Assembly (NCBI GenBank): GCA_032718475.1
Contig: JAUCBJ010008928.1
Coordinates: 62,001 to 126,000, forward strand
Length of the DNA: 64,000 bases
Origin: Nemertoderma westbladi
Taxonomy: Eukaryota > Animalia > Xenacoelomorpha
Direction: 5' to 3'
The translations under genes and the position numbers were made by a program. The notes below the pieces were generated by a model, which was not told the origin of the DNA, searched no databases, and was given only the letters and a program-made list of their open reading frames with translations. Positions 38,883 to 62,631 of the stretch are shown here, one piece after another. Each line of letters begins with the position of its first letter. Positions within the stretch are counted from its first letter, which is position 1.

Positions 38883-40023
38883 GGGGGGGTAGCGCATTTT
38901 CTGACCAAAAAGTCGAATTTTTGAAACATATCTTATCTAATGCAGAATTTCATGCTGAATCCAAATATGGAAACCGTTTTCTTATATCTTGCTTAGTTTT
39001 CGAGATATCTGTGATAGAAGATACTGGCTCCGATATATCGCGATATTGGTAAAGGAGATGAAGTTTGGGGTTTGCATTCAATTTCTGCAAATTTCTGTGC
39101 TCAGTGGTGCTAATTGGATGTCTCCACGAGAAAGAGCACAAAACTTTAATTGGGAAGGTATTTTTTTGTGATTATTGGACCTACTGATCAGTTTATAAGA
39201 CAACTTCAATTCTCCGGAATGAAGACGGGACTCGAATAAGCGACTCTGCGGTCTTTGCTGGATTACACGAAATAGACTTATCGGTCATCGGATATCTTCA
39301 AAATATGTAATCTCCAGTTCTAGTTGTCGTACGGAGTTCGTTTTGGGCTCATTCGAAAGCTCTTTTCTCAGAGACGACCAAAGTTATAATTTAGTTTGGC
39401 AAACTCTTGAAAGCTGCCTGAGCAATCACAACTTGAACAAAATTTGCAAGGCATATTTTACCCAAATTCATGTTATGTTACTTTATAACCATTTTGTCTT
39501 AAATCAAATGGTAACTTTGTTCTCTAAGAAAAGAGCTTTCGAATGAACCTAAAACGAACTTAGTACGACCACTAGAACTGGAGATTACACATTTTGAAGA
39601 TCTCCGATGACCGATAAGTCTATTTCGTGTAATCCAGCAAAGACCGCAGAGTCGCTTATTCGAGTCCCGTCTTCATTCTGGATAATTGAAGTTGTCTTAT
39701 AAACTGACAAGTAGGTCCAATAATCATAAAAAAATATCTTCTCAATTAAAATTTTGTGCTTTTTCTCGTGGAGACATCCAATTGGCACCACTGGACACAG
39801 AAAATTGCAGAAATTGAATGCAAACCCCAAACTTCATCGCCTTTACCGATATCGCGATATATCGGAGCCAGTATCTTCTATCCCAGATATCTCGAAAACT
39901 AAGCAAGATATGGGAAAACGGTTTCCATATTTGGATTCAGCATGAAATTCTGCATCAGATAGGATATGTTTCAGTCTTTTTGGTCAGAAAATGCGCTACC
40001 CCACCCCCCCCCCCCCCCCCCCC
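38883..40023. mobile_element. foldback MITE, Kolobok-like
   Basis: About 500-bp inverted arms (38883-39390 / 39500-40023), GG...CC termini, flanked by ATAA and TTAA. Confidence 0.8.
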
Positions 40024-42214: not shown

Positions 42215-42218
42215 TTAA

Positions 42219-45200
42219 ACTTCTTCAACGCACTATCCTATCTTTTGACCTACCCGGGAGACAGACCAAACCCTCGACTGGCTAGTATCCGTGCTAGTAC
42301 GACGGCAGGACCCCTGGTTCTGCTTCTGAGCAGGAACGACACAATGCGTAGAGAGAGCCCGGGCCGGTAGACTATGCAGCAACGTTGGCCGAAGCATTAA
42401 AGACACGATTTGAACTACCAGAAGTAAAACCTTTTTTAGTTCACGGGAGAATACCCCGAAGAATTTATCCAATTCAAACAACTATTTATGATGGAAGTGT
42501 ACAATAAAAACATCTCGGATCAACAAAAAATGAGATACCTATTAGTGTATACAGCATCAACCGCACACGAAGTAGCAAAGCAATACATGGGATTAACAAA
42601 CGGTTTGACATAAGCTTGGAAAGCATTAGAACGGAGGTTTGGAAATCCAGGTAAAATACTTCAAGCGACAGTGAATAAATTAGTCGAAAACGGGAAAATC
42701 GTAACAGTGCTGGAAATACGGACATTCACAGAGAGAGTTAATAAGGCATTAATCTCTCTAGATGAGTTAGGAATGCCACACGAATTAAACGCAACAAATA
42801 ACATGAGAGCATTAGTGGACTTACTACCACAGTACATAAGAAACTCATGGAGAAAGGAGGTGGCCAATATTAGATCGAGCAGAGGACGAGAACCACAACT
42901 CAGAGAATTAGGAGGATTTCTATAGGATCATATGGAAATAATCGACAATCCAGTTTATGGAGAAGAATTACTACCGAGTAATATTAAAGTAAATTAGGTC
43001 AAGAAGAAGGAGAAGGAGGAGAGTAAGGATAAGAAACAGGACTACAAGAAAATGTTCGACTCAGCAAGCGGGTCAGCCATACATAGCGTGTCGAGCGAAA
43101 GGTCACCAGCGAGACCATGGGAAAACGTAGTGAGATTCACGGAACCCGTAGAGAAAAACAATCGCAGTGCAAACGTCAGAGAAACACCAACAAGAGTGTG
43201 CAATCTACAAGCGAGATGTTATCTACACCCGAGGACAGACAGCCATAGTCTAAAGGATTGTATTATGTGGAAGGGATTCCTAGCCAGTGGACAGTGGGAA
43301 TACATTAGGTTAAACGGGTCATGTAGTTGGTGTTTAAAGCACGGACATATTTCGAAAAGTTGTCAAGAAAGAAGGACCAAGGTAGACGATAGAAGTCAGG
43401 ACTACTGGGGAAGGGAGACAAACCGCAGCAGGAGTGTGGAAGGCCAGAGGGGCCGGGCATGGAGTAACAACCGAGATTACAACCGCGACAAACGGGTCGT
43501 AACCAATATCGAGAACCACGAGGAAATGAGTATTATTATCGAAGCCAGTCAAGTAACGGGTATCGGGTACAATCACTGATAGGAAATAGGTGGGAACGGA
43601 AAGAACCTACCACGAAATTTGACCAATCAACAGAAACAAGTAATTTACTAGAAGGAAATCAACAGGAAACGATCACCAAGAGAGTCGGGACATATATGAC
43701 AATAACCAGGAAACGGGTCTATTTAAAAATAGTACCAGTACTGATTACGACAAATAAAAATAAACAGGGTGTCACAACCTACGCTTTATTGGACGAGGGA
43801 GCTTCGTCAACATTAATTTCAGAACGAGTAATCAATAAATTACGCGAGAAAGGGGAGGAATTTATTATGAAACTCGCCACAGTAGGCAATCGGATGGAAA
43901 ATATTCCATCCAGACTAGTAGACGTAAAGATATCAGCAGTAGAAGGAAGAGGCAATTTCAGTATATCGGCAGGGAAGATTGCAACCATGGACCATTTCGG
44001 AATTAGCAAATCCCAACCTACGGAATGGCAAACAAACCAATACGATCACCTAAAAGGTATTGATTTCAGTCATTATGAAGTAGATGTGCCAACGGTAAGC
44101 ATATTAATTGGAGTAGACAATCCAGCATGTTTTGAAACAATAGAGGAACGGAAAGGAGCATTCGACGGACCATGGGCTAAATTAACACCTTTTGGATGGG
44201 TAGTATATGGCCCTGTGGAGGGAGATGACGACGAATTAATATTATCAGACAATTCGGAAAGCGAAAGTAGTGACGATGAAAGTAGACATGACGGAATTAA
44301 TTATATGAGACCGAAAGAAGTTGATTTAGAAACCATTTATAGACAGGATTGTGAGGGATTATTCAACCCAACGATAGGAGAATCACAGGAGGATATTAGA
44401 GCAAGAAACTAGATGGACAAAACATTGGTTTTTCGAGATGGACATTTCGAGATAGGAATGTTATGGAAAGATAAGGAACAAACGCTCAGAAATAATAAAC
44501 AAATGGCATTAAAACGACTAGATAGATTGAAGTCGAAACTAGCGCGAAATGATAAGCAACATAAAGCAGAACAAGCGGCAATCGATAAATACATAGTGAA
44601 AGGATGGGCAGTAAAATTACTGCCAGGAATATTGGATACATTTAAGACTAATTATTTGCCATTGCATACTGTATGGGAACCACACAAAGACAGATATAGA
44701 GTTGTACAGGACGCTAGAGCAAAAAGCGGAGGGAAATGTCTTAACGACTATTTATTGGAAGGACCAAACTTATATAATACTGGACTGGATATATTATGGC
44801 ATTTTTGAGAAGGGAAATACGCATTTATATGTGATGTACAAGCAATGTTTCATCAAGTGTATGTGACGTCAGAAGACACAGATAGTTTATGCTTTCTGTG
44901 GTATGAGGGAAATCAAGACGGAAATAGTCAGCATAATATTGACATATATAAAATGTTAGTTCACATATTCGGAGCGAAGTCATCGCCATGTATTTGTACC
45001 CACTGCATGAGGGAATCTACCAAACTCACCAAACCAGATGGGAAACAATGGGATGATGAAGTCAAACAGATGATTAACCAACAGTTCTACGTAGATGACG
45101 GCACAGATGATTAACCAACGGTTCTACGTAGATGATGGTGTAGGAACACGTAACGCAATAAATCAATTAATTAAATTAGCCAAGGGAACCAGAGAATGTC

Positions 45201-45890
45201 TAGCGCAAGGAGGATTTACACTAACCAAATTTGTACCAAACTCACCGGAATTTATTAAAGCCATGGAAGTAAAGGCGGCCTCTATAGTGCCGAGTGCAAA
45301 GGCGGCCTCTATAGTGCTGAGTGCAAAGGCGGCCTCTATAGTGCCGAAGGTTGAGACAACCTACATGAAACCGGAAGTTCAGGAAACCAATAAAGTATCA
45401 GATTATAAGGCGACCTATATAGTGTAACACACAGAAAGTGCACCGATGTTAGAGAATATGGAAATAAATACATTAAATTCAACATCGCAACCAATTATGG
45501 AAACTGATAGTAATCAAGATTTCGATGAGTTAGAATTAACTGGAGAAATACCAATAAAGGAACCTCTAGTGTCAACAGATGGGACATCAGGTGGCACCAG
45601 AGTGTTAGGGATAGCATGGAATACGGAAACTGATAACTTGGAATATAAGTTCAGTATTGACTAAACGAAAGGACATAGTAAGAGGGCGTATGTATCAATA
45701 TTAGCAAAGATATATGACCCACCAGGATTAATATTGCCAATATTAATAATCGGCAAACAAATTCTGAAGGAAGTACACCTATTGAAAGTAGGTTGGAATG
45801 AATCCATACCAAAGGATATTCAGGTTAAATGGACAAAATGGATAGATAGTTTGCAACAAACAGAAAAGCTTGTTATACCGCGACCGACAT
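42219..45890 (+). pseudogene. BEL/Pao element D gag-pol, degenerate and truncated after RT
   Basis: Gag knuckle CSWCLKHGHISKSC, protease YALLDEGASST...PWAKLTPFGWVVYGP, RT YLPLH...RVVQDA...LNDYLLEGPNL...MFHQV...HIFGAKSSP...FYVDDG, and RVLGIAWN...IYDPPG...IPR. Many stops and frameshifts. Confidence 0.92.
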
Positions 45891-46115
45891 AATTTATTAT
45901 GATGATATAATTTATTAACATATTACGATGACTTATTGACATTATATAATGACATACCATGACATATTGACATACCGCAAAGCGTATGAGAATTGATTAA
46001 TTTAATTTGAAATTTGTGCGATATGAGAAAATATAAGCACTATAAAATAATTTAAAATAATGAAGAATGGGGATGAAATAGTATTACTTAAATGGGCGTG
46101 ACAGTAAGTCCCATA

Positions 46116-46654
46116 AGTAGTAGGGTCTTGGCCGGCTCTGTGACAGTTAGACCTAACTGACACCCATTGGGTGTCATATGACACCCAATTATCACCCTAT
46201 GGGTGTCATTGGGTGTCATTGGCGCCAGACTGTCTGGGTGACACCTCCCAATTAGGCTAATTAGACCCTAATTGACAGATGTCATCAATTAATTAGTACA
46301 ATTAAACCCTAACATGTGTCATATGACTCCTAATTAGGGTTTAATTGAATATCCTAATTAATCAGACTGATTAGCGCCCTGACACACAATGGGTCATCAG
46401 TGATGTCTAACTGTCACAGAGCCGGCTCAAGAGGGTGTCATAAGTGACACCGCAGCTCTTTTATTCATTAATACCTATTTATTTATATTTAATTTTAATT
46501 AATTATTTGTATTCTATTCTATTTTACTTTATTTATTCATTTGTACTTTATTTTAAATTAATTAACTGTATTAATTTTACTTTATACATTGATTTCTATT
46601 TTAGATTAATTAGTTTTTATATTACCAATGAGATCACTATGACATAATGTCTAT
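46116..46654 (+). repeat. left TIR
   Basis: Reverse complement of 61218-61751, with a few SNPs and a 5-bp indel. Confidence 0.97.
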
Positions 46655-47139
46655 ATTTAACTTTATAATGGCTATGGTATACGGCTCCCTACTGGCAACT
46701 ATCAACTACGTTCATCGGCGGGGGCCCCTCCTCTGCCGTCGCTTTTCATTAAGTAGATACAACAGGCAGTGAATCTATACGTATACCCCCCAGGCAAATA
46801 TAAATGAGCGATCCCGTCTGTTAGCAGTCCCTTCGATGACTCACTAATAATCCCATCGCGGCCTTGACTACAGCAAATCCGTATATCGCCCAAGGCTAAT
46901 GCTCAAGCGGCCCTCCATTGTTCCCACTATAGCCGGCGTCGCTTTGTCCCTTTCCTATATCCAGGCAGCCCGTATCATAACAATGAAGCGCCACTAATCA
47001 CGCATTCCTCTCTACTAATCCCTTTCCTTTGCACCAGACCTGCTTCTGTTATACAGCCAACTCAACATAATTAGTCAAGATGTCTACGGGGGTTTTCTAA
47101 TATAGAATCAACACGAGAAGTTGCCTTGGTAACCGCTTT

Positions 47140-47205
47140 TGCGCGAACAGCCAATCAGCGGGCTTCATTTCTGCTGCTGCGCTCTGATTGGCTCATTTAA
47201 GAGAC
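47140..47205 (+). promoter_or_regulatory. putative polB promoter (two CCAAT boxes)
   Basis: AGCCAATCAG at about 47150 and CTGATTGGC at about 47185. A downstream donor GTAAGT lies at about 47558 and an acceptor TTTTCTAG just before the polB ATG. Confidence 0.45.
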
Positions 47206-48270
47206 AAGGGCCTCCCCTACTAACCGAATTGCTATTTAATACATCCCCACTAATATATTACGTCATTAATTCAAATGCAAGTTACGATTAACATCATTTA
47301 CCATTATTTTGTTTTCGAATTTAATATTATTTATTTAAGAATATTTATTTATTATCATCAGTCAACAACCCACTTATATTATTGTCATTTCGCCTCGTTA
47401 TCGCTCATCGTCGACAACAAACTTTCCGCGTATCCGCCGCGTAATATTCTTCCAATACCATTCCGTTCTATCGGTTAATAAACTCTCTCGTCGTCCACGT
47501 CAACCAACTTCCTCGCGAACGTCCAAACTTCATCTTTCCGTGAATATTTACTAATACCGTAAGTAAAATCTGCCTTCCACCATCTCCATCGACGCCGCTA
47601 GCAAACAATTTACCTTTAATGTCTACCGGTACAACAGTATTGCAGTAGGCTCATTATTAATTACTGTCAGACTGCGGTGATACCGATAGCCTAAACCGTG
47701 ATCGAAGCATTCGATCAATAGGCCTACATCTACCTATCTGCTTGTCTACCCAACTACCGATACCGCTTCATTCGAGTTAGCCTAGGCCTAGGGCCATCGT
47801 AGTAGCGCTATAGACCCTACTGAACAACAATGAATACTGCAGTTTTCACTATATATCCTACTGACTAACTGAGTTCTCACACAGCGATTAGCTAAGCCTA
47901 TCGTTGATTTCTATTGGTTAACGCTACCGATACGTCTGACTTCTGGCAGACTTTTCACTAGCACTACTGCACTGACTGACTGCTGTTTATAGACCCTCTT
48001 TCCATGAATAATAACTGCCATCGCTATTGTGTCTTGGTTATCGCCACTATCTGACCGCTGGTACACTAACACTACCACACTAGTCACTACCGACGGTCTG
48101 CTTTATGTTTCACTGACTGATTGCTACAATATAGCAATAGGCCTAACTGTACAAACATAGTATTGTTGCCTAGTAACCAATTAATACCTACTGTTTTACT
48201 TTATTTTTAGCAAGTATACAGTATTTTTTATTTTTTTTACGAATAATCAACTTATTTTTCTAGATTCAAG

Positions 48271-51200
48271 ATGCCTATGTCTACCAATAAAGTTAGCTGC
48301 CCCATCTGCGACAAAGAGATGCGGAGTGATAATCTAAAATCCCACATTAAAATTCATTTCGCGCAATATAGATGCGACTGTTGCCCGACTTGGTCCTCGG
48401 AAAAGAAGACGCTGGTTGGCCATCTTGTTTCGTGTCCTCAGGGGGGAACAGGATTTAGTTACGTAAACGAGCCAGCCGATTGCCGCTGCGGGGATTCGCT
48501 CACCCTATCATCCTTTTCTGAGCATGAATGCTACACTCGACTTTTTTCGTGGAAACGCAAAACTCCGACTACCTCCCACTCATCCCCCATCAACTCTACT
48601 CCAGAACAAGTCGGCGGCGGCGGCTCCAATAATGAACCTTCAACTTCACGAGAATCTATTTCCCCAAACAATCCATTTCAACCACCCTCCAACGGAAGCG
48701 CACACGGACGACTGTTTACCTATAACAATGACCTCGCAGAAACAAGACTCGACGCTGAATTAACATTAAACGAAAATTTTCCACACATTCAAGAACACGT
48801 TAGTAGCCATTTACGTAGTGCCATGGGAACTTTTTTAAGAGTCTGGCTTACAATCAATATCGTAATGGAGCGTGAAACCAGCGAGGGATTTCAAATTGAA
48901 TCATTCTGTTTTAAATCTAGCGGTAACAATAATCAAATTCTGAATAATAGCGACTTTAATAACTGGTTTTCTAGCGCCGTCAATCGTATCGATCAACTGT
49001 TAAGCGTGTTTCTCTGCCTCGGCTCGGGTTGGCGCATAATAGCCATCGAGCGAATAACTATTGAGATTGCGCGTTCCCAACGCAACCCCTATTTAAAGGG
49101 TCAAGGCTTCAATAAATCTAAATTATTATTAAATAAAAAATGTACCGTAAGCGTAGACTGCCCGCTGGGGGAATGCTTTAAATACGCAGTATTGGCCGCC
49201 GCAAATTATAAGAAAATTGATAGAAAAAATAATAATATCAAAAGAATTTCAACGTATACTCCTTTCCTAAACATGTTTGATTTTTCCAATTTAAGTTTCC
49301 CGGTGGACAGAGTAACTGGTATTCCCCAGTTTCTGAAAGCCAACCCTATATACTGCATAAACCTTCTTTATTGGAGTAATACGGAAGAACTCTCCATTCT
49401 AAGTCAACCAGATAGCGCGCACTGTTCCGGTAAAACTGTACTAAACTTATTATTTATCGAAGCCACAAGCAAAAACCCCGCCCACTACGTAGCTATTACT
49501 AACATAGATAGATTAATAAATACTAAAGCTACTTCTACCGGCAACAAGACGCACTGCGAACGCTGTCTCAGAGCCTTTTACACTGACAAATCATTGGGAG
49601 AACATCGAGAGCGCTGCTATACGGGTAAACGCCAGCTCGAGTATATGCCCGAAAATCTCTTGGTTAAATTTGACAGGTACGATAAGACTCTATCCCCACC
49701 TTTCTGTATATACGCCGACATTGAAACTATTCTAGAACCTACAAACAATATTAAACTCCCACAGAAACATATAGCTAGCGCGGCAGCCTTTTATACAGTA
49801 CCAAATCAGAAATTAATTAACCCTCCTAAAACAGATGTTCAAATTTTCCGCGACGATGGCAGTAACCACGTAATGCGCGACTTTCTAACCGCTATGGAAA
49901 GTCATTGTAGGGAGTTATACGATTGGTCCATTTCTAGTACAAACACGCACGCCCCCATGCAACTCACTACTAGCCAACAAACTGACTTTAATAACGCTAC
50001 ACAATGCTACGTCTGCAACTGTAATTTAACCCCCGATTCTCATAATTTAAACCTCAATGACAATCTCAGCACCAAAGTCCGCGATCACGATCATTATAGC
50101 GGGGAGTATCGAGGGGCTGCTTGCGTCAGCTGCAACAGGAAACTTTCTCTAAAACGGAATAATTTTTATATTATATTTCATAACTTGAGGAAATTCGATA
50201 TGCATTTACTACTAAAAGAAGGAATGACCGATAGTTCTAGAACACACTGGAAAATGACTGTAATACCAAAAAACACCGAAACTTATATTCACCTTAAAGT
50301 TAGCTTTCCAATCGATCCGAGTACACCAACAACCAACGCTAAAGAAAGTATCTCCATTAATTTTCTAGATTCCTATCAATTTATGACTGCCAGCCTAGAT
50401 AATCTTAGTAGTTATCTCACTAAAAATAACAGTAACCTAGCAACAGCCATACCCCATACACTAGCTCAAATGACCCAACTCTATCCCATCATTAGCGATA
50501 TCACAATAAAGAACAAGGGCGTATTCCCATATTCCTACATTCAAAATATTTCAAACCTACACGAAACTACACTCCCCCCAATAGAAAGCTTCTATAATGA
50601 TCTCAAATTGGAACAATGTAGCGCAGAAAACTATCAGCGCGCGCTTACTACTTGGGATGAATTAAACTGCGCAACAATCTTCGACTATATGATTGGTTAT
50701 TTGGTCCTAGACGTTACCCTATTGGCTGATACTTTCGAGCAGTTCCGATCCCTCTGTCTTACTAATTATGGACTCGAGCCCGTAATGTACTTCACTGCCC
50801 CTGGATTAACTTACGACGCGGCGCTGAAATTCACGCAATCAGAAATTCAATTACTATCAGACGCTCCCATCTACTCGGACTTTGAAACAAATATTAGGGG
50901 TGGTCTAGTTTTCTTGAATACACATTCCGTAGACGCAAATATTCCCGATAAACCCGACTACGACTCCAGTCTCCCCGAGAAATATCTAATTCCCATCGAT
51001 GCGAATAACCTTTACGGCTGCGCCCTGAGCCAGAAACTTCCCTACGCTAATATTAAACTCGTAACTACGCCCATAGACCTAGCTACAGTAGACGCGAGTG
51101 GGGATACTGGTTATTATTGCATAGTTGATCTACATTACCCGAAAGAAATTCATGATTTGACCGCCGATCTGCCTCTAGGAGCGGAGAAGATGTCAGTCCC

Positions 51201-52326
51201 TAAATCCTTTCTTAGTGAATACATGGAAGATCTTTGGGAGCATTACAATCTCACCGATACGGCTACCTGTAGACCATACAACGATACCTGTACTAAGCTA
51301 CTACTACATCAGTTTAATAAGGTTGAATACGGTATCCATATTAAGCTACTTCAACTCTATTTGAAGCTCGGTCTTAAACTTACACAAGTACATAGGGTCT
51401 ACTCTTTCTCGCAAAAATATATTTTCAAGGACTACATTAGTTTTAATACGAATAAAAGACAGTCGGCAAATAACCCATTCGAGGTCCTATTTTATAAGTT
51501 GATGAACAATGCCTTGTATGGGAAATGCCTCCAAAAGGTTAGAGACCGCGTTTCTTTCAGGTTATGCAATAGCGACGAACAATGCGATTTGCTCTTAGCC
51601 AAGCCCAACCACGAATCGTTTGTTGTATTTACCCCCAACTTGATTGGGCATACTTTCACTAAAGAGGCTGTTTGCCTAAATCAGGGCGTGTTCATCGGTT
51701 GCACTATACTAGATCTATCTAAGCTACAGATGTACGACCTATTTTACAACAAACTGAAACCTCTAGAACAAAAACTGGATTGCCAGATTCGCTGTCTAGC
51801 CGGTGACACGGATTCTCTAATGCTAAGCGTAACTAATACACCACAGCTAACCTTTCTACGGGCAATGTTTGAGGGTGGTTTCCTAGATACTTCCAACTAC
51901 AGTACAACACATCCACTCTATACCATTAAACATAAAGCGGCTCTCGGCTTCGTAAAAGATGAGAGCTGCGGTTTGCAGTATAAACAGTGGGTTTTCCTTA
52001 AACCAAAGGTCTACAGTTTTCAATCCTACGATGCCCCAATCAAGAAAACCGCCAAAGGTGTATCTAGATCGGTTGTCGCTAAGCAACTAACACACGAGGA
52101 TTATGCAGACTGTTTTGAAAACGAGGCAATGCTCTTCCGCTATAACTCTACCTTCACTTCTAGAAAGCATCAAATTTTTACTGGTCATGTCTATAAGAAG
52201 GCACTAACGCTCTGGGATACGAAATCATATTGGAGTAGTAAATATAGCAGCAAACCATACGGACACTATAGCACTAAGCTTGTTAGACCGGCGAAACGAG
52301 TAGTAATCCCCCCTACTAGGATTTAA
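48271..52326 (+). CDS. polB: protein-primed family B DNA polymerase with N-terminal zinc finger and inserted endonuclease VII-like HNH domain
   Basis: Exo I YADIET, Exo II FHNLRKFD, Exo III YLVLDV; Pol motifs DANNLYG, KLMNNALYGK, GDTDS, KVY and AKGV; CYVC...VRDHDHYSGEYRGAACVSCN; C2H2 CPIC...HIKIH. The ORF is intact. Confidence 0.96.
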   Translation: MPMSTNKVSCPICDKEMRSDNLKSHIKIHFAQYRCDCCPTWSSEKKTLVGHLVSCPQGGTGFSYVNEPADCRCGDSLTLSSFSEHECYTRLFSWKRKTPTTSHSSPINSTPEQVGGGGSNNEPSTSRESISPNNPFQPPSNGSAHGRLFTYNNDLAETRLDAELTLNENFPHIQEHVSSHLRSAMGTFLRVWLTINIVMERETSEGFQIESFCFKSSGNNNQILNNSDFNNWFSSAVNRIDQLLSVFLCLGSGWRIIAIERITIEIARSQRNPYLKGQGFNKSKLLLNKKCTVSVDCPLGECFKYAVLAAANYKKIDRKNNNIKRISTYTPFLNMFDFSNLSFPVDRVTGIPQFLKANPIYCINLLYWSNTEELSILSQPDSAHCSGKTVLNLLFIEATSKNPAHYVAITNIDRLINTKATSTGNKTHCERCLRAFYTDKSLGEHRERCYTGKRQLEYMPENLLVKFDRYDKTLSPPFCIYADIETILEPTNNIKLPQKHIASAAAFYTVPNQKLINPPKTDVQIFRDDGSNHVMRDFLTAMESHCRELYDWSISSTNTHAPMQLTTSQQTDFNNATQCYVCNCNLTPDSHNLNLNDNLSTKVRDHDHYSGEYRGAACVSCNRKLSLKRNNFYIIFHNLRKFDMHLLLKEGMTDSSRTHWKMTVIPKNTETYIHLKVSFPIDPSTPTTNAKESISINFLDSYQFMTASLDNLSSYLTKNNSNLATAIPHTLAQMTQLYPIISDITIKNKGVFPYSYIQNISNLHETTLPPIESFYNDLKLEQCSAENYQRALTTWDELNCATIFDYMIGYLVLDVTLLADTFEQFRSLCLTNYGLEPVMYFTAPGLTYDAALKFTQSEIQLLSDAPIYSDFETNIRGGLVFLNTHSVDANIPDKPDYDSSLPEKYLIPIDANNLYGCALSQKLPYANIKLVTTPIDLATVDASGDTGYYCIVDLHYPKEIHDLTADLPLGAEKMSVPKSFLSEYMEDLWEHYNLTDTATCRPYNDTCTKLLLHQFNKVEYGIHIKLLQLYLKLGLKLTQVHRVYSFSQKYIFKDYISFNTNKRQSANNPFEVLFYKLMNNALYGKCLQKVRDRVSFRLCNSDEQCDLLLAKPNHESFVVFTPNLIGHTFTKEAVCLNQGVFIGCTILDLSKLQMYDLFYNKLKPLEQKLDCQIRCLAGDTDSLMLSVTNTPQLTFLRAMFEGGFLDTSNYSTTHPLYTIKHKAALGFVKDESCGLQYKQWVFLKPKVYSFQSYDAPIKKTAKGVSRSVVAKQLTHEDYADCFENEAMLFRYNSTFTSRKHQIFTGHVYKKALTLWDTKSYWSSKYSSKPYGHYSTKLVRPAKRVVIPPTRI

Positions 52327-52340
52327 TTTTATTTTTCTAG

Positions 52341-52856
52341 AATAAGAAATTGAACAACAAAATAGAAATAACCAATAAACAGTTTACCGGAAAAAACATT
52401 GCCAAATTTGAACTAGATAAAATTTCACAGCAAATTACAGGTCAAAGTTGCTTAAAACCAAACATGTTTATCTACAAAGGTGACGATTCAACTATAATGC
52501 TATTTCCCAGCGGCGCAGTAACAATTGTAGGCCTGTGCAATAATTTAGCTAGTGAATTGCTTTATTTAAAACAAACTATCGGGATGCAATTGCAAAATTT
52601 GAAACTTAATACCGAAACACGAACTATTATTTTTCCAAGCGTTAATTTTAAATTATTAATGAAAAAATGTGGACATCATACAATTAATAATAAAGCAATA
52701 TTTATTAGCTATACCCCCGAATTATTTTGCGCGATTAGAATATATATAGGACATGCATATTTCAGTGTATTTCATAGTAATAAAATCGTTTCCATGTGTC
52801 CAGCCGGTGAATTCCCCGAATCATTATCTATTTTACAAACTTTATTATTAAATTAG
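52341..52856 (+). CDS. divergent TATA-binding protein (TBP)-fold protein, probably a spliced exon
   Basis: Two TBP-like repeats: KIEITN...FELDKI...STIMLFPSGAVTIVG and LKLNTET...VNFKLL...SYTPELFCAI...FSVFHSNKIV. There is no ATG at the start, and a phase-0 acceptor TTTTTCTAG ends at 52340. Confidence 0.8.
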   Translation, partial: NKKLNNKIEITNKQFTGKNIAKFELDKISQQITGQSCLKPNMFIYKGDDSTIMLFPSGAVTIVGLCNNLASELLYLKQTIGMQLQNLKLNTETRTIIFPSVNFKLLMKKCGHHTINNKAIFISYTPELFCAIRIYIGHAYFSVFHSNKIVSMCPAGEFPESLSILQTLLLN

Positions 52857-52919
52857 TTTATTTACTATGGTATACATGAAAGTTTACTATATTATTTATT
52901 TTGTATTGGTTTTTATTTT

Positions 52920-53640
52920 TCCGTGAGTAGGATTTGAATCCGTGACCATCCGTGTTACCTACTTTTTATAATTGCATTAGTAGGACTCGAACCCTGGTTT
53001 AACTTATTTTGTGTCGGATTTATAATGGTCGCGAGTAGGGATTGAACCCGTGACCTTCTGTTTTTCCTAATTTATGTTTAGTTTAGTTATTCTAGTTATT
53101 CTATGTTTACTTTTTATATTTTCATGATTAGGATTCGAACCCTGGTTTAACTTATTTTATGTTGGATTTCTAATGGTCGCGAGTAGGGATTGAACCTATG
53201 ACCTCCTGTTTATTTTCCATAAAACGGGATACGAGTAGGGATTGAGCCCGTGACCTTCTGTTTTTCCTATTTTATGTTTAGTTTAGTTACTCTAGTTATT
53301 CTATGTTTACTTTTTATATTTTCATGATTAGGATTCGAACCCTGGTTTAACTTATTTTGTGTTGGATTTATAATGGTCGTGAGTAGGGATTGAACCCGTG
53401 ACCTTCTGTTTTTCCTAATTTATGTTTAGTTTAGTTACTCTAGTTATTCTATGTTTACTTTTTATATTTTCATGATTAGGATTCGAACTCTGGTTTAACT
53501 TATTTTGTGTTGGATTTATAATGGTCGCGAGTAGGGATTGAACCTATGACCTCCTGTTTATTTTCCATAAAACGGGATACGAGTAGGGATTGAGCCCGTG
53601 ACCTTCTGTTTTTCCTATTTTGTGTTTAGTTTAGTTACTC
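52920..53640 (-). repeat. tandem array (148/200-bp units) of Pol III B-box / tRNA 3'-half-like motifs
   Basis: Repeated minus-strand GGTCACGGGTTCAATCCCTACTCGCGACCA and CAGGGTTCGAATCCT. More copies lie at 54165-54440. Confidence 0.8.
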
Positions 53641-53649
53641 TATGTTAAA

Positions 53650-55217
53650 GTGAATTTTCACCTTATATTTATGTTAAATTATAAATTTATGTTACAATTA
53701 TTATTTATATTATAAAAACAGAATTATTCGAGTTATATTGCATTATATATTTTACATTGAAGTGGAATACTTTAGATGCTGGGGGGGGGGGGGGGGGGGA
53801 ATCTGGTTTGCGAGGGATATTTGAATGGTGAGTATAACTATCCTTGAGAGCTAGTGCAACGCTATCTCACCATGGATGGGCTTTACCACTGTACTCGCAT
53901 CTGCTCTCTCATTGGCTGCTCGATGCCTCCGATTAAGGGTCTAAGACCTTCAAGCTGGTCATTTGCTTAGTTCTCTAATTGGAGGGATGTGAGTTTGCAC
54001 GCTAGAAGAGCTTTATTCTTTTTCCTAGCTCTTGGTTAACTCTAGTACACTCTAGTTTTGACTCTCCCGGCTATAGTGATAGTATGCAACCTTGGGAGTT
54101 AATGTGAGAATATATTTCAATGTATTTCATAGTAATAAAATCGTTTCCATGTGTCCTGCCGGTCCCTGGTTTAACTTATTTTGTGTTGGTTTTATAATGG
54201 TCGCGAGTAGGGCTTGAACCCGTGACCATCTGTTTATCCTTTTTTGTGTTTAGTTTAGTCTAGTTATTCTATGTTTACTTTTTATATTTTCATGTCTAGG
54301 ATTTGAACCCCGGTTTAACTTATTTTGTGTTGGTTTTATAATGGTCGCGAGTAGGGATTGAACCTATGACCTCCTGTTTATTTTCCATAAAATGGGATAC
54401 GAGTAGGGATTGAGCCTGTGAGCATATGTTTTTCCTATTTTACCTCTTCTTCTCCATCTTTCTCACTCAAATTTTCCTCATTTTCTAGGGGTAACTGTTT
54501 TTGTATCCCTTTCAAAATATTCACAACTTTATGAAATTTATTTTCCATTGGCTGTTTTATATTTAATATATCACGCTCATCTCTCTTTTTCTTTTCATCT
54601 TCACTAAAAATATCTTCGGATTTTTTAAATTTTTTGGTAACGGAGCCATTAGTTTTTCCTTTCTATATGTTTCCATATGACGAGATAAATTGTCTTGTCT
54701 CATTTCTTTATTACAAACCAAACAACTTTCATGTCTATGCATTATATAGCAATGTCATTTGATAATATTGAATTTTCACATCATATTTATGTTAAATTAT
54801 AAATTTATGCTACAATTATTATTTATATTATAAAAACAGAAATATTCGAGTTATATTGCATTATATATTTTACATTGAAGTGGAATACTTTAGATGCTGG
54901 GGGGGGAATCTGGTTTGCGAGGGATATTTGAATGGTGAGTATAACTATCCTTGAGAGCTAGTGCAACGCTATCTCACTATGGATGGGCTTTACCACTGTA
55001 CTCGCATCTGCTCTCTCATTGGCTGCTCGATGCCTCCGATTAAGGGTCTAAGACCTTCAAGCTGATTATTTGCTTAGTTCTCTAATTGGAGGGATATGAG
55101 TTTGCACGCTAGAAGAGCTTTATTCTTTTTCCTAGCTCTTGGTTAACTCTAGCATACACTCTAGCTTTGACTCCCCCGGCTATAGTTATAGTATGCAACC
55201 TTGGGAGTTAATGTGAG
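53650..55217. repeat. internal duplication within the Maverick
   Basis: 53650-54107 is repeated at about 54768-55217. 54110-54163 copies the TBP-like gene end (52757-52808), followed by array units. Confidence 0.9.
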
Positions 55218-55417
55218 TAAAGGCCAAGAGATTAGACTTCAGGCTCCCTCTATTGGTTCATTCTTCTTAACTTTATAAAATAACTCAACCCGTATTTAAA
55301 GTTTTAAAAATTATGACTTAGTCGACTAATTTTCCAAAGTATATTATAAAAACATATAATTTCTTGAATAGATAGACCTAATAGTAATAAATAATGTGGG
55401 GGTAAATACATTTATAA

Positions 55418-56305
55418 TTAAGGTAACTGTAGCTCGAGACTGGGGCAATCAAGTGTTCTAACTAAGGTTCTATAGCAACTCCGATAGGCAATGATCGATA
55501 ATGGTGGGGTCCCTGAGAGTAGATAGAGTGTATTATTCTCCAAATAGTTCCCAGGAAGTAAGAGGCTACGTTGCACCTTGCGGTGGTAGGCGTCGAGTTT
55601 GTCGATATCCTTTCGGCGTAGGGATCCAATAGTCAGAGTTAATCTGTAGATTATGACAGGGACGGCGAGTGTGTTCCACATCTTAAAGATGGTCTCTAGG
55701 TTGAGCCACCTTGCTGTCCATCCTTTGGTATGGAAAACTTGCGACATCATGGCTATTGTCTGGATAACATTGTGGAGGTTGCTAGCGGGGTTAGAATTTC
55801 CCAGTTTGTGTCCGAGGAATTTCAGATGGTTCGACATTTGGATTAGTGATCCGTTGACTGTAATGAAACATTCCTTGTGGGTCATATAGTTACGGTTTAG
55901 GATCGTCCATTTTGTTTTCTTCATGTCGATTTGGAGGGATACCAGAGCGGCTTCCCGTATGAGTATTTCGCACATCTTCTCGACGGATTTAAGCGAGGTT
56001 CCCAGGAGTAGGTAATCATCAGCATAGGCCACTGTACCAAGCCAGGATGTGTCAATTCGGCATCCGAGGTTACTATGTTCTATTCTGCTTAAGATGTTGG
56101 AGGTGTAAAGATTGTAGAGGATAGGTGAGATGAGTGATCCCTGTTTCAATCCCCGCGAGACTTTTATTGGAGTTGGGTCGACTAGATCGCCGAATTTGAG
56201 GAAGATTTTGCTCGATCCAAAGTAAGCTAAGATAAGGCAAATACTGTAAGGAGTAACTGTAAGGGACAACTGCGCTCCCAATCTCGCTCGCCGGCCGGTC
56301 CTCAT
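55418..56305 (-). CDS. partial non-LTR-type reverse transcriptase (from motif 4 onward plus thumb)
   Basis: RGLKQGSLISPILYNLY, AYADD, LQIDMKKTK, LKFLG and PVIIY. It has no motif-3 Asp (D..KAFD) and no endonuclease. Confidence 0.85.
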   Translation of the reverse strand: MRTGRRARLGAQLSLTVTPYSICLILAYFGSSKIFLKFGDLVDPTPIKVSRGLKQGSLISPILYNLYTSNILSRIEHSNLGCRIDTSWLGTVAYADDYLLLGTSLKSVEKMCEILIREAALVSLQIDMKKTKWTILNRNYMTHKECFITVNGSLIQMSNHLKFLGHKLGNSNPASNLHNVIQTIAMMSQVFHTKGWTARWLNLETIFKMWNTLAVPVIIYRLTLTIGSLRRKDIDKLDAYHRKVQRSLLLPGNYLENNTLYLLSGTPPLSIIAYRSCYRTLVRTLDCPSLELQLP

Positions 56306-56507
56306 GCAAATTTAGCCTATGAGAAAATAAATAATTTATTTTATAATTAAATAATAATTTATTATTTAAGTAATTGCTTTATAGCCATCTTGGTAATTCT
56401 TATAACGTTAAAATTATTGTAATTACTCAAATTAATTTCTATTCAAACTGCATATTGCTTTAACCTATTTTATTATATCATATTATATAAAGGAATGTTA
56501 GTATTAA

Positions 56508-56933
56508 TTAAAACTTACACCATGGTTCCTCCCTAAAATCCTCTGTTTCCTCCCAGTTTTCCTGGGGAAAAGGGTAAAGGAAACGTTGTTCCTCAGCCGC
56601 TGCTATCTCTTTCAGAACATATTCCTGGTACAAATACTGATCGTACCAGTTGGAGGAGGTCCGAAGCCCTTCCACTCGCGCTTCCTCCAATGCTCGAATC
56701 TCGAGCTCTCGATTAACCAAATCCTCCTCCCACGCCATCTCCTCTTCCTGATCCCTCATATAACGGCCATAGGGAGTGACCGCTTCCGACCTGCTCTCCA
56801 TGGTCTGTGTACCGACGCTTCTGGTCATGGTTGTGTTGATAGCGTTGGAAGCAGTGGTGATGGATGTAGCTGTGGTGGTGATGGAGACCGATGCCACGGG
56901 GGCAGCTAGCTGGGTGCTGGAGGTGGAATCCAT
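56508..56933 (-). CDS. small Thr/Ser-rich, acidic orphan protein (about 141 aa), possibly exon 1 of a spliced gene
   Basis: Kozak ACCATGG at 56933, an upstream TATA-Inr, and a GTAAGT donor at 56518-56513 just before the stop. Confidence 0.6.
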   Translation of the reverse strand: MDSTSSTQLAAPVASVSITTTATSITTASNAINTTMTRSVGTQTMESRSEAVTPYGRYMRDQEEEMAWEEDLVNRELEIRALEEARVEGLRTSSNWYDQYLYQEYVLKEIAAAEEQRFLYPFPQENWEETEDFREEPWCKF

Positions 56934-57025
56934 GGTATTGATTAATTGGTAAATTAACAAGTTTAAAATTGTAAACGCAAAAGTTTAAAATGTAGAATAA
57001 ATCACATAAAATTTTTCGAGCTCAA

Positions 57026-57062
57026 AACTGATGACGAATGAAGGCCCAACTCGGTTTATATA
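57026..57062 (-). promoter_or_regulatory. TATA-Inr core promoter
   Basis: Minus strand TATATAAA (57062-57055) and TCAGTT with its A at 57029, about 31 nt downstream. Confidence 0.65.
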
Positions 57063-59150
57063 GCATCAGCGCAGAGGGAGCAACGCAACAGTTTCAACGA
57101 GCGGCGGCTTTAATTAAAGGGCTCCCCAGTGATAAGTCGTTAGGAGCCAGTAGTAATTATATATCGGTAATAACTATGGGATATAGCATATGAATGTTAG
57201 CCTTATTTGGGCCCTCAAGCTTATTAGCAATAGAGATATCTCGCTTGCCGGCCGGCCCTCATGCAGATTTAGCGGCGCCAAGGCTAACGGGGCACCTCAA
57301 AGACAGTCTGGCTATAGTAGAGTAGAATGGATATACGAGTCCATAGCTAAAATACATCTGCCATGGAGCCTTCGCGTAGCACTATGCTCACCAATTATAT
57401 TTATAATTCTCTATCCGCGAAATTTTCAGGAATTTTAAATTTTGGCCGTCGCTTCGCGGAAAAAATAAAAAGTAAACATAAAATAGGATATACAGATTGT
57501 CATAGATTCGATTCCCTATCTCGACCAGGGTCATTATGACCCTCCCCCCCGATATTTATACAACATTTTATAGCCCGGTAGTATTGGGGTTATTATGTGA
57601 CTCATGAAAATAAATCTTAAATACAATACAAATGCTCCATCTGGGTAAAAGTGGATGCAATGTATTTACAAATCGAGTGTGGATCAGGATAGTTTTCGTT
57701 AAGGTTTCACCTTGGTGAAGTGGAAGCATTGTATTCACATTTCGAGTACCATTTTTATTGAAACTATGGGGCATTTTATATTAGCCGATTTTTCAAAATT
57801 TGTAAAGTTTTGAGGGTTTTTATGAAAAATATAGGGATTTAGGGATTATCATTCAAATTGACTACGAAGAAGGCAATAGGGATCATTAATGGTGTGCTGA
57901 GGATATACAGATTGTCATAGATTCGTTTCCCTACCTCGACCAGGGTCATTATGACCCTCCCCCCCCCGATATTTATACAACATTTTATAGCCCGGTAGTA
58001 TTATGATTAAAGCTACTAAACTAAAACATAACAAAGTGCAATTATCCTATCTGTTCCAACTCGGTGTCACTAGTTTAGATAATATACTATAATAATAGTG
58101 ATAGCAGATGCTTTTAATTTCGCGATGAAATAATGTCAGCAAACGAAATATAGTGAATACATCATAGATAGAATTTTAAATTTTGCAGTCGCATGGAGTG
58201 ATAACCCTTAGGTGAAAGCTAAATTTGCTCTACTTTAATCAAATGGGGCATTAAAGCTACGAGTATATTTTCCTCTACATCCTCCCTCGATCTTACACAA
58301 ATCTGGGTAAAAGGCAGTTGAAGGGCTATCATTCCCAACTTATGCGGTCCTCCCTTTAATGTTTCATTGTTCTATTCATAGTCGCCTTTAAGAATTTCTC
58401 GGGAAAATAAGGATGAGGGGCTATCACTTTCAACCCCATGCGGCCCTCCCTTTCATGATTTCATTGAACTATCCATAGTACGAACAATCAAACCAAAGCC
58501 TTTGAATATCCTCGCGGCTTATCAGCGGCGCCATGGCTAACGGCTTAATATTAACAGTGAAGCATCTAAAAGACAGAGTGTCTATGATAGGGCAGAACAG
58601 CATACTTACAGCCTAGAGGTGGTCCCCACTGAAAACTTTGCTCGCCATCAATACATACAAAGCATCGCTTGATGGTTAGAGTAATAGGGTGGATATTTTC
58701 ATTTTGGTGAATATAATTTATAGCATTAATCACGAAAATCGCTAAATAATATATTTTAATTAAAATCAGCTCTGATAAACAACTTGCATATCGAGTTTGT
58801 AAAGAATTCATAGGGATTGGCTGTTTATTTAGGGGTTAACATTCAAATTGATTACGAAGAAGCAGTAGGGGTCATTAATGGTATGCTGAGACTCACTTAC
58901 TTCATGGCTCGCTCTCATAGAATAGATTAACTAGTAGAGAAAAATGAAAAATAAGTGGTTAAACATCTTATATTTTTTAAACAATATGGGGAAACAAGAA
59001 TAAATAATTTACCGACAACATCAATATTAAATAATATAACAACAACGGATAAATAATTTACCATCAACATTAATAATAAATAATATAAGAACATCAACAA
59101 TAACAAAAGATATAGTCAGAACAGTTTTTAATAAATAGAGACTGTTTATA

Positions 59151-60860
59151 TTAATAGGGTTGCTGGCCTCCGAGAATAACTGGTTTAACCCTTTTAGGGT
59201 CCGATACTATTAATGGTTGCGATAATTTTCTCTTTAATAGATTGTTGAGATAGCCTTTTCTTGGGGGGTGAAATAGATTAAGGTGTGTTTGCTGCGGGAG
59301 AAATATGCCTTCTCTGAGAGAACGTTTTAGTAATTCGAAAAGGCGCGCGATGGTAAAGTCGTTGGATAGGGTGATAGTGTTGGTATTTTTCGTATTGGTG
59401 AATATAATTTCTGTTGGTTTGTTCTCGATATGAATGTAAGGACTGAGATAGTAGTGAGAGTTGGGTGGGTTGGTTATATTTATCGTGAGAAAATCGCTGC
59501 CCCTAATATTGAGACCGTTGGTGAACTGAAAAGTGGTATTCTCTTCGTCTTTCATTAAAATGGGCCAGATACCGACATATTTTTCGGATTTGAACTTATA
59601 GATAAAGGCTGCGATACTGCTATTTATGAGATAGCGCTGGTGATTGGGGATCGTAATCTGCTTCGGTTTGAAAGCAAATTGTATAGCCATAGCCTTGAAT
59701 CTGATTAGAGCCTCGCGCGCTTGAATCGTGTTAGCTATAGTAAAGGATTCGTTAAATTTTCTCTCGGTTATCTGTAAATCAATTTCTGAATCACTGATAC
59801 AACTTTGTATCGATATTCGCTCGGAAATGTTGTCTTTGTATACGTTAAGTTCATCGTAGCAGACACATTCACTATCCTCGATGGTTGAATCGAACCATTT
59901 CAATTCGCCGACCTCGGTTGGTGTAAGAAGAATCATGCCCCTAGAAGAAACAATAGCCTTTCCATCGTCAACCTCGTAGCCATTGGTGATCGCTAAATTG
60001 CGCTCGTTCCGAATATTTGTAACAAACCCAAAAGTGCAATAGTCAAAAGCAACCCAATTGCCCGGTTTTAGGACAAGGTGAGTAGTAGGATTAATAAAAG
60101 GGCGACAGATGTTTACATATTGTTGAAATAAATTGGCGCAGGCGACGGAAAATGTGATCCATGAACTGTTTACCGTGTCTTCCAGCTTTATTAACTCGAG
60201 TGGTTTCACTGGGTTAATACTTCCATAGGTGCCAACTCTATAATTGAATCCAAAGTAATAGGAGACTTTATCGGCGAAAAAGCATGTGAGCTCATTCAAT
60301 TTCTCGCCGAAAGCGAGAACATCCTTATCGAAAAGTTTAAAGAAACGAGTCTCCTCTTCCTCGGTCGGAGTCGACGAGTTCCAGATGAGAAGAAGAATCG
60401 AGTTTGCGATACTATGAAAATCAAATAAGCGATCATCGGAGAAGAAGGAGGTTACGAGAGTGGTTAAACCCAGTAGACGATTTGCCACATCTTGGTTGAT
60501 GTTTTCTCGAATAAAATCGACTATACTAGTTGGAATCGTAAACGTCTCGGGCGAAGTAGTTAGATTGAACGTTATTTTGTTGTCCCTTTTTAAAAGTTTG
60601 AAACCGTGGTTGGAGGAATGAAGTTTATTATCGTCGAGGGTTTGATATTGTCCATCGTGAAGTTCGTAGCAGGCACGGAAAATAAAGTGCGCGTAGTTTG
60701 CCGGAATCGGGATGGGTTGGTTTAAGGTTGTATTTATCGTTAACGGGAAGAGTTTGTTCGCCGAATCGAAATATAGACCAAACGAGTTGTCTTGTAGCAT
60801 AAACTGATTTTCGTTGCAAACCAGATCGTTGCTTGAATAGCTGATTTCTGAATGTGCCAT
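59151..60860 (-). CDS. 569-aa Maverick cargo protein, possibly with divergent PC4/Sub1-like repeats
   Basis: Intact ORF. LAITNGYEVDDGKAIVSSRGMILLTPTEVGEL and YVGIWPILMKDEENTTFQFTNGLNI resemble the PC4 pattern VDIREYY..DG...P.KKGISLT. Basic C-terminal NLS-like patches (KRK, PKRVK). The ORF is solid but the fold call is tentative. Confidence 0.6.
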   Translation of the reverse strand: MAHSEISYSSNDLVCNENQFMLQDNSFGLYFDSANKLFPLTINTTLNQPIPIPANYAHFIFRACYELHDGQYQTLDDNKLHSSNHGFKLLKRDNKITFNLTTSPETFTIPTSIVDFIRENINQDVANRLLGLTTLVTSFFSDDRLFDFHSIANSILLLIWNSSTPTEEEETRFFKLFDKDVLAFGEKLNELTCFFADKVSYYFGFNYRVGTYGSINPVKPLELIKLEDTVNSSWITFSVACANLFQQYVNICRPFINPTTHLVLKPGNWVAFDYCTFGFVTNIRNERNLAITNGYEVDDGKAIVSSRGMILLTPTEVGELKWFDSTIEDSECVCYDELNVYKDNISERISIQSCISDSEIDLQITERKFNESFTIANTIQAREALIRFKAMAIQFAFKPKQITIPNHQRYLINSSIAAFIYKFKSEKYVGIWPILMKDEENTTFQFTNGLNIRGSDFLTINITNPPNSHYYLSPYIHIENKPTEIIFTNTKNTNTITLSNDFTIARLFELLKRSLREGIFLPQQTHLNLFHPPRKGYLNNLLKRKLSQPLIVSDPKRVKPVILGGQQPY

Positions 60861-60974
60861 TGTGATTGTGTACCGGTAACTCGTTTAGGAAATAAAAATA
60901 AATAAATACTTTTACGAAAATAATTAAAACTTTTCAGGAAAACAAAGAGACAATGATTGGGAATGTGGTGAACG

Positions 60975-61085
60975 GGGGCTATTATAGAGGGGGCTAGAAT
61001 GGGTTAGCCAATCGGGGAACAGGAGGGAGAAAAGACTGTATAATTAAACCAATCAGAGAGCAGCTTTGATGACGTCACATCAGGC
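60975..61085 (-). promoter_or_regulatory. putative promoter of the 569-aa gene
   Basis: CRE palindrome TGACGTCA (about 61070), two CCAATC boxes (about 61008 and 61049) and minus-strand TATAATA (about 60980-60986). Confidence 0.5.
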
Positions 61086-61217
61086 GAGATAATGATTGCC
61101 CAATGTTATTCAATGGTAGGCAGAGTGGCGCCATTGAATAACGAAGACAAAGGGGCCGCCGCGAGAGGAAAGATTATAAAGTTAACCATAAGGGATCTAT
61201 AAACCATAGAGCTAAAA

Positions 61218-61751
61218 ATAGACATTATGTCATAGTGATCTCATTGGTAATATAAAACTAATTAATCTAAAAATAGAAATCAATGTATAAAATAAAAGTA
61301 ATACAATTAATTAATTTAAAATAAAGTACAAATGAATAAATAAAGTAAAATAGAATACAATTAATTAATTAAAATTAAATATAAATAAATAGGTATTAAT
61401 GAATAAAAGAGCTGCGGTGTCACTTATGACACCCTCTTGAGCCGGCTCTGTGACAGTTAGACATCACTGATGACCCATTGTGTGTCAGGGCGCTAATCAG
61501 TCTGATTAATTAGGATAATCAATTAAACCCTAATTAGGAGTCATATGACACCTGTTAGGGTTTAATTGTACTAATTAATTGATGACATCTGTCAATTAGG
61601 GTCTAATTAGCCTAATTGGGAGGTGTCACCCAGACATTCTGGCGCCAATGACACCCAATGACACCCATAGGGTGATAATTGGGTGTCATATGACACCCAA
61701 TGGGTGTCAGTTAGGTCTAACTGTCACAGAGCCGGCCAAGACCCTACTACT
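61218..61751 (-). repeat. right TIR
   Basis: Reverse complement of 46116-46654. Confidence 0.97.
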
Positions 61752-62631
61752 CCCATAGTATTATAAAATATTGTTTGAAAGGAAACTGAAAGTAAAGGGG
61801 GTACAACGGATTAGCTACCCGCCCTGATACGATTAGTTAGTCCAGAGCAACGCTATAGAAAGCAGTGACAAGATGCTTGCGATTTTTGGACAAAGAATTA
61901 GCGGTTATTTACAGCTGCATGAATTTAGTAGCTAGTTAGAGCTACGTGAATCAAATAACTTTCGTTGATTGATATTTGTTAATGAAAAATTAACGGACGT
62001 TGAACCTATGTGAGTTCGACAAGTTGGATTAAATAAGATGAAATAGTTTGATGCATGGATATAATTAACCAGGCAATTGTTTGTGTGGAAATTAATTTGT
62101 GTTTGAGTCGATGGAAATTCATTTCTGGAAAATATTTGCGGATATAGGACAAAAACTAAATAACACATTGACTATTTGGCGACTAGAGTTTACAATGTGT
62201 AAACAGCTGACAAATTGAATAAAGGGATTGAACATGACATAGAAATTGGATGGACCGGATGACTGTTTGTAAATACAGCTGGTGTATCTGTAACAATAAG
62301 TTAACGGCTTATTGCTATAGCAATGCCTAAATAATAGAATGATACAGAAACACAATGACTAACAGATGAATAGTATGACTCAATAAATTTGAGAGGACGG
62401 AATATAACTTGTAACCAAGGACATATAATATATTGAATTATCTGGAATATTACTTGATTAGAATAAACTTTATTGTTTATATTTAGGCCCTAGGATAGAT
62501 TATTATTTAGCTATATTATATTATATTAGGAATTAACTTGCATTATTTATTATATTTACAGCGCGACCCTATTTAGTGGTCAGATTTGCAAGTGACTTAT
62601 TGAGCCATTATAGTGGCATTATTGGATCACA

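Follow-up and report, generated by a model that had tools for sequence, protein, structure and literature searches.

Polintons (Mavericks) are defined by a family B DNA polymerase of the protein-primed kind (pPolB) together with an integrase (PMC5499653), and the ranges given for them are terminal inverted repeats (TIRs) of 100–1500 bp, target-site duplications (TSDs) of 5–8 bp and a length of 13–25 kb (10.1101/2023.08.22.554363). Defective members are already in print: nine capsid-less Polintons have been described without the major capsid protein, protease and ATPase (PMC4028283), and butterfly polintons lacking polB, with long interspersed nuclear element (LINE) or long terminal repeat cargo, show signs of amplification after the loss (10.1101/2025.02.07.637071). 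Here we describe a Maverick-type element of 15,636 nt from the xenacoelomorph Nemertoderma westbladi, at 46116–61751 of a 64,000-nt stretch (assembly GCA_032718475.1, contig JAUCBJ010008928.1, positions 62,001 to 126,000 of the forward strand), called the window below, to which all coordinates refer. The element has an intact pPolB, and its integrase–virion module is absent at the sensitivity tested. It has about an even chance of being a replication-module-only, non-autonomous Maverick, which would be copied by its own pPolB and integrated in trans by the integrase of a complete relative with near-identical ends.

The element is bounded by 6-bp duplicates, CCCATA at 46110–46115 and again at 61752–61757, and its first letters are AGTAGTAG. 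The left TIR (46116–46666, plus strand), which begins with AGTAGTAG, is 551 nt long, the right TIR lies at 61206–61751 on the minus strand, and the two are identical at 535 of 552 alignment columns (96.9%). Both the TIR length and the TSD lie within the Polinton ranges. As the aligned TIRs differ by substitution at only 7 of 533 sites, and their outer part at 3 of 343 (0.9–1.3%), the insertion is young. As single-stranded DNA, TIR nucleotides 11–317 form a single long self-complementary hairpin (−104.9 kcal/mol, z −16.6, equalled by 0 of 100 shuffles); terminal palindromes were also present in two of the related loci, L032 and L008. A TSD of 6 bp is the product expected of the lineage's rve integrase, and in an element without a detectable integrase such a duplication is most naturally read as integration in trans.

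The pPolB gene (48271–52326, plus strand) is open for 1351 aa and matches PF03175 with an E-value (E) of 4.5e-19. All motifs sought were present: the vOTU Cys/His residues, ExoI–III, PolA–C and an endonuclease-VII-type zinc insert. The protein is a protein-primed PolB with a vOTU domain, as in Polintons, and its best database matches show 35–39% identity. The perfect TSD, the near-identical TIRs and the intact polymerase of the preliminary description were all confirmed.

The integrase–virion module was sought with profiles from relatives. A single-sequence pPolB scan of viral contigs gave no relative, and an alignment scan found relatives; in total, 107 loci with a related pPolB were fetched (80 metagenomic, 27 viral). 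The 605 non-polymerase proteins formed 73 clusters, of which the 60 largest were compared as profiles with the 478 six-frame stop-to-stop pieces of the element. Outside pPolB the only clear match was to the TATA-binding protein (TBP) cluster, at E 2.6e-10, followed by E 0.004 and 0.015 for clusters of two and three members. Control profiles, built from loci outside the clade to which the element belongs and tested on sixty-residue fragments of clade proteins, recovered 58 of 59 fragments (integrase 21/22, ATPase 9/9, capsid-like 28/28). The rve integrase, the FtsK/A32-type packaging ATPase and the lineage-type major capsid each matched 0 of the 478 element pieces, the major-capsid label being taken from a weak Pfam Capsid_N match (E 0.007), size and position. 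Clade-specific profiles likewise detected no integrase, ATPase or capsid remnant in the element, and tblastn with 109 clade proteins gave, outside pPolB, E <0.03 for the TBP frame alone. The integrase cluster had merged with proteases, 23 of which were tested apart; this 23-member adenain-like profile reached a best E of 0.24 in the element and found none in 32 clade loci either. A fourth, unnamed cluster failed its own control (0/5). The absence of a recognisable integrase, ATPase and capsid, as first suspected from the letters alone, is therefore borne out at the sensitivity tested.

The lineage was placed with a FastTree tree of 103 sequences (the window, the 81 of the 107 loci whose match was long and unbroken, and 21 selected proteins from the database; 790 columns, rooted at the midpoint). 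In it, the window pPolB forms a long branch (0.95) among metagenomic Mavericks, inside a clade with L002, L006, L009 and L012 (local support 1.0). A two-repeat TBP gene occurs in 6 of 32 loci of this clade (L002, L005, L006, L009, L011 and L012; Pfam E at most 1.7e-12), and all members of the TBP cluster lie within it. Four of the six TBP loci carry an rve+chromo integrase (L002, L006, L009 and L012) and three a capsid-like gene (L002, L006 and L012); the contigs of L005 and L011 stop just after TBP, and most other clade contigs are short. Since the TBP loci of the clade include complete Mavericks, the TBP-like gene of the element was inherited rather than captured. Hence the "transcription-machinery cargo" that had been put forward as a special trait is shared with integrase-bearing relatives. 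TBP is also named as a gene label in the legend to a figure of PMC8502044.

In L002 the plan is convergent, with pPolB and TBP on the plus strand facing capsid-like genes and the integrase on the minus strand. The element has pPolB and the TBP-like gene on the plus strand and a reverse transcriptase (RT) fragment, an acidic open reading frame (ORF) and a 569-aa ORF on the minus strand, with the sign of the GC skew flipping at ~53 kb. To judge by this layout, it has kept the first arm of the L002 plan, with other matter in place of the second. It shares with the TBP-bearing Mavericks or adintoviruses (L002, L006, L009, L012) the long TIRs, the 6-bp TSD, the vOTU-pPolB with TBP downstream and L002's convergent plan, but differs from them in having no integrase, ATPase, capsid-like or phospholipase A2 (PLA2) gene, a coding density of 49% compared with 59–87%, and an orphan 569-aa ORF.

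The TBP-like gene (52341–52856, plus strand) is a stop-to-stop frame of 171 aa whose first ATG lies at 52464. Its match to PF00352 (E 0.0016) is under the cut-off, in contrast to the strong match to the clade TBP profile. Homology begins at ~52368, upstream of the first ATG, and a call of 130 aa is therefore truncated; with no ATG at the homologous start, splicing or a non-AUG start is needed. The 12-mer TTATTTTTCTAG, which resembles a splice acceptor, has only two copies in the 64-kb window, at 48252–48263 and 52329–52340, the first 7 nt before the pPolB ATG, near the end of a non-coding leader (46667–48270, plus strand), and the second after the pPolB stop and ahead of the TBP frame. A leader or exon ending in AUG, if spliced to 52340, would be in frame with TBP. 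Flatworm spliced leaders end in AUG (PMC9851317), although the same may not hold for the host. The TTG at 52350 is an alternative candidate start.

The minus-strand side contains much non-coding and duplicated matter. Next to the TBP-like gene lies a rearranged non-coding block (52860–55220, minus strand) that comprises a 148/200/348-nt array, a duplication of 460 nt and a copy of 52 nt from the 3' end of TBP. In the tandem array, 13 exact motifs resembling a B-box or tRNA T-arm were present at 52981–54416 (minus strand), against a chance expectation of 0.31; no tRNA genes and no Rfam families were found in the repeat array. Such a B-box array beside a TBP-like gene possibly represents TFIIIC sites, Pol III genes or an array derived from a short interspersed nuclear element. 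It is followed by a small C2H2-zinc-finger-like ORF in two frames (54435–54754, minus strand; tblastn E 2.7e-4 to L076, and a weak zf-C2H2_2 match, E 0.047) and by the 5'-truncated LINE-type RT fragment (55418–56305, minus strand), a 295-aa open frame with YADD present (PF00078, E 7.9e-14) that spans profile positions 111–205 of 205, the N-terminal half being absent. The Thr-rich acidic ORF of 141 aa (56508–56933, minus strand) matches no family. A non-coding spacer (57400–58900) holds short duplications and two pieces of ~65 nt, at 57528–57592 and 57943–58011, that match host DNA at 42156–42219 with 80–83% identity and have likely entered the element as a short host repeat. All four ORFs reported besides pPolB (TBP-like, partial RT, acidic and 569-aa) were located, and the five main frames cover 7,596 of 15,636 nt (49%), compared with 59–87% in seven related loci. 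The normal length of the element, noted earlier, does not speak for a designed segment, being made up with duplicated and non-coding filler and the truncated RT.

The duplicates also bear on when the module was lost. Those of the array differ at 12 of 339 (3.5%) and 19 of 278 (6.8%) positions, and a 64-nt pair at 6 of 64. Since TIRs are equal at insertion and the array duplicates are more diverged, the array at least predates the present insertion. This speaks for a middle that had been rearranged before, in a replicating ancestor, with which one clean later deletion would still be compatible. A complete Maverick could have inserted and then lost its integrase–capsid block in a single clean deletion, leaving a dead single copy. 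Internal deletions are common in the family (three joints among those listed), the middle is rich in direct repeats able to mediate one, and a clean deletion leaves no remnant, consistent with the negative profile searches. However, the undeleted element would have been well over 20 kb long (15.6 kb plus the module, which occupies ~6–8 kb in L002 and L012), which is possible but at the top end of the 13–25 kb range, the insertion is young, with TIRs 0.9–1.3% apart, and sequences immediately following TBP and immediately internal to the right TIR are found again in sequencing reads. We consider this history rather unlikely.

Public reads were used to examine the family to which the element belongs. 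Five of nine listed runs contain the stretch or part of it, none on record as RNA, and four DNA runs (X1–X4; three samples, three studies) were compared over 45400–52900; the statements below draw on a listing of 24 out of 598 loose ends and of 15 out of 31 joints, and contig depth is not to be equated with copy number. Contigs nearly identical to the window pPolB had depths of 1542–2034 in X1, compared with 46–56 for diverged copies, and of 1540 in X3, compared with 14–38, that is, 30- to 40-fold deeper in these two runs. A different flank at 46116 was seen in X4, and a variant TIR start (46116–46136) with other flanks in at least three contigs of X2 and at least six of X3; this variant is a candidate sister subfamily or helper. 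One X1 contig (depth 2034) passes the TBP stop and reaches 52900 with a single difference, so that most copies do not continue into an ATPase gene at this point, unlike L009 and L012. At the inner TIR boundary, X1 and X2 run on into the window's own right arm, and one continuation at 46602 has no counterpart in the window. Deletion joints among those listed were 46458–47652 and 47743–48226, which remove parts of the leader in family variants, and 49104–52334. The last belongs to a derivative without most of pPolB (49105–52316; depth 245 in X3 and 47 in X4) that retains TBP and the acceptor-like site, and its presence in two studies fits the spread of defective copies. The element is hence one of a multi-copy family with other insertion flanks and deletion derivatives. 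The TIR pattern had 0 matches in viral contigs.

The same reads, together with the TIRs, bear on the possibility that the element is one segment of a two-part Maverick, contributing polymerase, TBP and the 569-aa protein, whose partner, with the same TIRs, carries integrase and capsid and no polymerase. The split follows functional arms, with replication kept and integration and virion functions lost; the TIRs carry a long terminal hairpin; and pPolB viruses whose segments share termini have been published (PMC8502044, PMC8363768). The TIR variant and the foreign continuation at 46602 could belong to such a partner, and summed TIR depth is far above that of pPolB. However, this excess is inflated by overlapping contigs: in X1 the TIR depths are 3614 and 4128 at 46408 and 46566, compared with 1542–3508 at four pPolB sites, which is close to two TIRs per pPolB. 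The TIR-to-pPolB depth ratio was for this reason rejected as a measure of partner segments. Moreover, no partner segment was seen, the close relatives are one-piece Mavericks, and the low coding density and patchwork duplications resemble a defective genome rather than an optimised segment. We regard a segment as unlikely. Equally improbable, in our estimate, is the fuller version in which a Maverick lineage of an animal has become two integrated units that depend on each other and have hairpin TIRs in common: the element would provide polymerase, a TBP-like factor and an orphan DNA-binding protein, expressed by way of splice acceptors, and a polymerase-less partner would provide integrase and capsid.

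The high copy number and the near-identical repeats at 52.9–55.2 kb would also suit a chimeric assembly in which two copies were fused within the repeated middle. Against this, the matching 6-bp TSD assigns the two ends to a single site, and both TIRs share a letter at 46279 at which ~99% of the read depth differs, which leaves such a chimera highly improbable.

The remaining large gene, the 569-aa ORF (59151–60860, minus strand), has a basic C-terminal stretch and matches no family, and its third-codon composition resembles that of pPolB. It gave no match in a word-indexed search, in Pfam/PHROGs, among solved-structure sequences, in viral contigs or in the Atlas. Its sole match among 1.84 billion representatives, a bacterial Ig-repeat protein, was rejected, the score being the sum of six weak repeats; a weak match over 64 residues to a capsid cluster of Sputnik type, with E 0.066 on 478 pieces, was dismissed as chance. 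Two single-sequence models were too poor to use (predicted local distance difference test scores, pLDDT, of 29.6 and 37.5), and fold searches from both, in which a divergent jelly-roll capsid could go unseen, gave nothing significant. These properties bear on whether the element is autonomous, with an integrase, recombinase or capsid going unrecognised in the 569-aa orphan or in spliced exons. In favour are the length and intactness of the protein, native to the element by third-codon composition; it has no homolog apart from the repeat artefact and no reliable fold model, and the acceptor-like sites suggest splicing. However, profile comparison of the ORF with the clade integrase, capsid-like, ATPase and 511-aa clusters gave a probability of ≤0.15%, no capsid or integrase match appeared, and in the control sixty-residue, exon-sized pieces of integrase, ATPase and capsid-like genes were detectable. 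The 6-bp TSD, too, is what the lineage's rve integrase makes. Autonomy of this kind is very unlikely.

By eye, the 569-aa ORF has several strand-strand-strand-helix units resembling PC4. PC4-fold chains (MoSub1 in four rows, PURA and a T5 PC4 homolog) were among the non-significant Foldseek rows at E 3–8, obtained from a poor model, and another Maverick locus, L032, has a weak PC4 match (E 0.0017). Neither the whole ORF nor its parts had a PC4 match in Pfam, and the Atlas gave none. A three-sequence PC4 profile missed the ORF, a search for further relatives of PC4 gave none, and a four-sequence profile scored 262 of 501 sequences, the real ORF not being among them. Internal repeats were no better than in shuffles, of which 28 of 100 were as good. 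A PC4-like DNA-binding role for the protein is thus an unsupported guess. Separately, near the best-scoring pPolB relative, a 160-aa ORF (L020:5573–6052) shows by eye two PC4-type units; Pfam gave no match for it, and no score ties it to the 569-aa ORF.

For the non-autonomous Maverick that we favour, the following course may be proposed. The plus-strand arm with pPolB and TBP would be the ancestral replication, or early, arm, and a minus-strand arm with integrase and capsid genes, as in L002, would have been lost and replaced by filler, the LINE fragment, the acidic ORF and the 569-aa orphan. This loss probably preceded the present insertion, the array being more diverged than the TIRs. Protein priming from the terminal-protein domain and the production of linear copies are established for the pPolB family. 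The polymerase of the element would likewise start synthesis at the TIRs by priming from the terminal-protein domain and yield linear copies, on which the rve integrase of a helper would act at the shared AGTAG ends, leaving the 6-bp duplication; the TIR variant in the reads is a candidate for that helper. As a guess with no score behind it, the 569-aa product might serve as a tandem PC4-like single-stranded-DNA-binding protein in strand-displacement synthesis. Of the first interpretation of the element, integration in trans is supported as the natural reading, and the family is multi-copy with other flanks; TBP as a special cargo is not supported.

Several observations weigh against this interpretation. 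No complete helper was seen in the reads compared. Although both ends of the short layout recur, the comparison of reads extends to 52900, and a family member of greater length might carry the module within 52900–61188. X2 and X3 are one sample with an unchanged flank, which may be the source of the window, and X4 showed no depth excess for near-identical pPolB. The long pPolB branch and the identity of 35–39% mean that other genes of the lineage may have diverged past detection, and the models of the 569-aa protein give no usable fold. Other internal duplicates, differing at 11 of 447 and 2 of 101 positions (2.0–2.5%), are not clearly above TIR divergence.

Compared with the described systems, the element, by a definition that needs an integrase, fails membership as an autonomous Polinton and works like a derivative of one. 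With the capsid-less Polintons it has in common the concerted loss of the virion module, but it is also without an integrase. Like the butterfly polintons it is TIR-bounded and deficient in core genes, with retroelement cargo and signs of amplification; those elements lost polB and kept other core genes, which makes the present one their mirror image. A replication module without a structural one, and helper-dependent spread, are also found in transpovirons and linear pPolB plasmids (PMC11071308). Transpovirons, however, have a pPolB–helicase fusion and giant-virus helpers, whereas the element is integrated with a TSD and bears an exonuclease-containing pPolB; the superfamily 1 helicase fusion without exonuclease that marks transpovirons was not found in it, ExoI–III being present and no helicase family matching. 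In bidnaviruses and Drosophila Vesanto virus, to which it is likened by a pPolB on a TIR-bounded unit without a capsid gene (resembling a polymerase segment) and by shared termini, the genomes are described as single-stranded, non-integrating and segmented (PMC8502044, PMC8363768), whereas no partner segment was seen for the element. A TSD-flanked Maverick family that keeps pPolB and lacks integrase was not found in the literature searched, supplements and most subscription papers being outside its reach. Hence, with defective polintons already in print, it is this direction of loss that was not found described.

The surroundings of the element are repeat-rich, with BEL/Pao and LINE remains. 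Elsewhere in the window, a 352-aa open frame (25738–26796, plus strand) had no Pfam family and no match among the fetched loci, a fold-back element lies at 38922–39973 (453-nt arms, 94% complementary, spacer of 146 nt), and tandem arrays with units of 38 nt and 50 nt occupy 31317–32679 and 35467–35866.

A side result of the analysis is a Maverick clade with its own TBP-like gene. If the element is a single deleted copy, it represents ordinary decay; if the split into two units is true, it would amount to a segmented polintovirus that integrates, and would offer a living model of the transition from Polintons to bipartite pPolB viruses. Should the short layout be that of a family, Maverick functions would be shared in trans, with the polymerase kept and integrase and capsid borrowed, and surveys that require five core genes (such as 10.1101/2023.08.22.554363) would miss such elements. 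With such a family one could test for the action of Maverick integrases in trans and for an influence of defective-interfering Mavericks on copy number.

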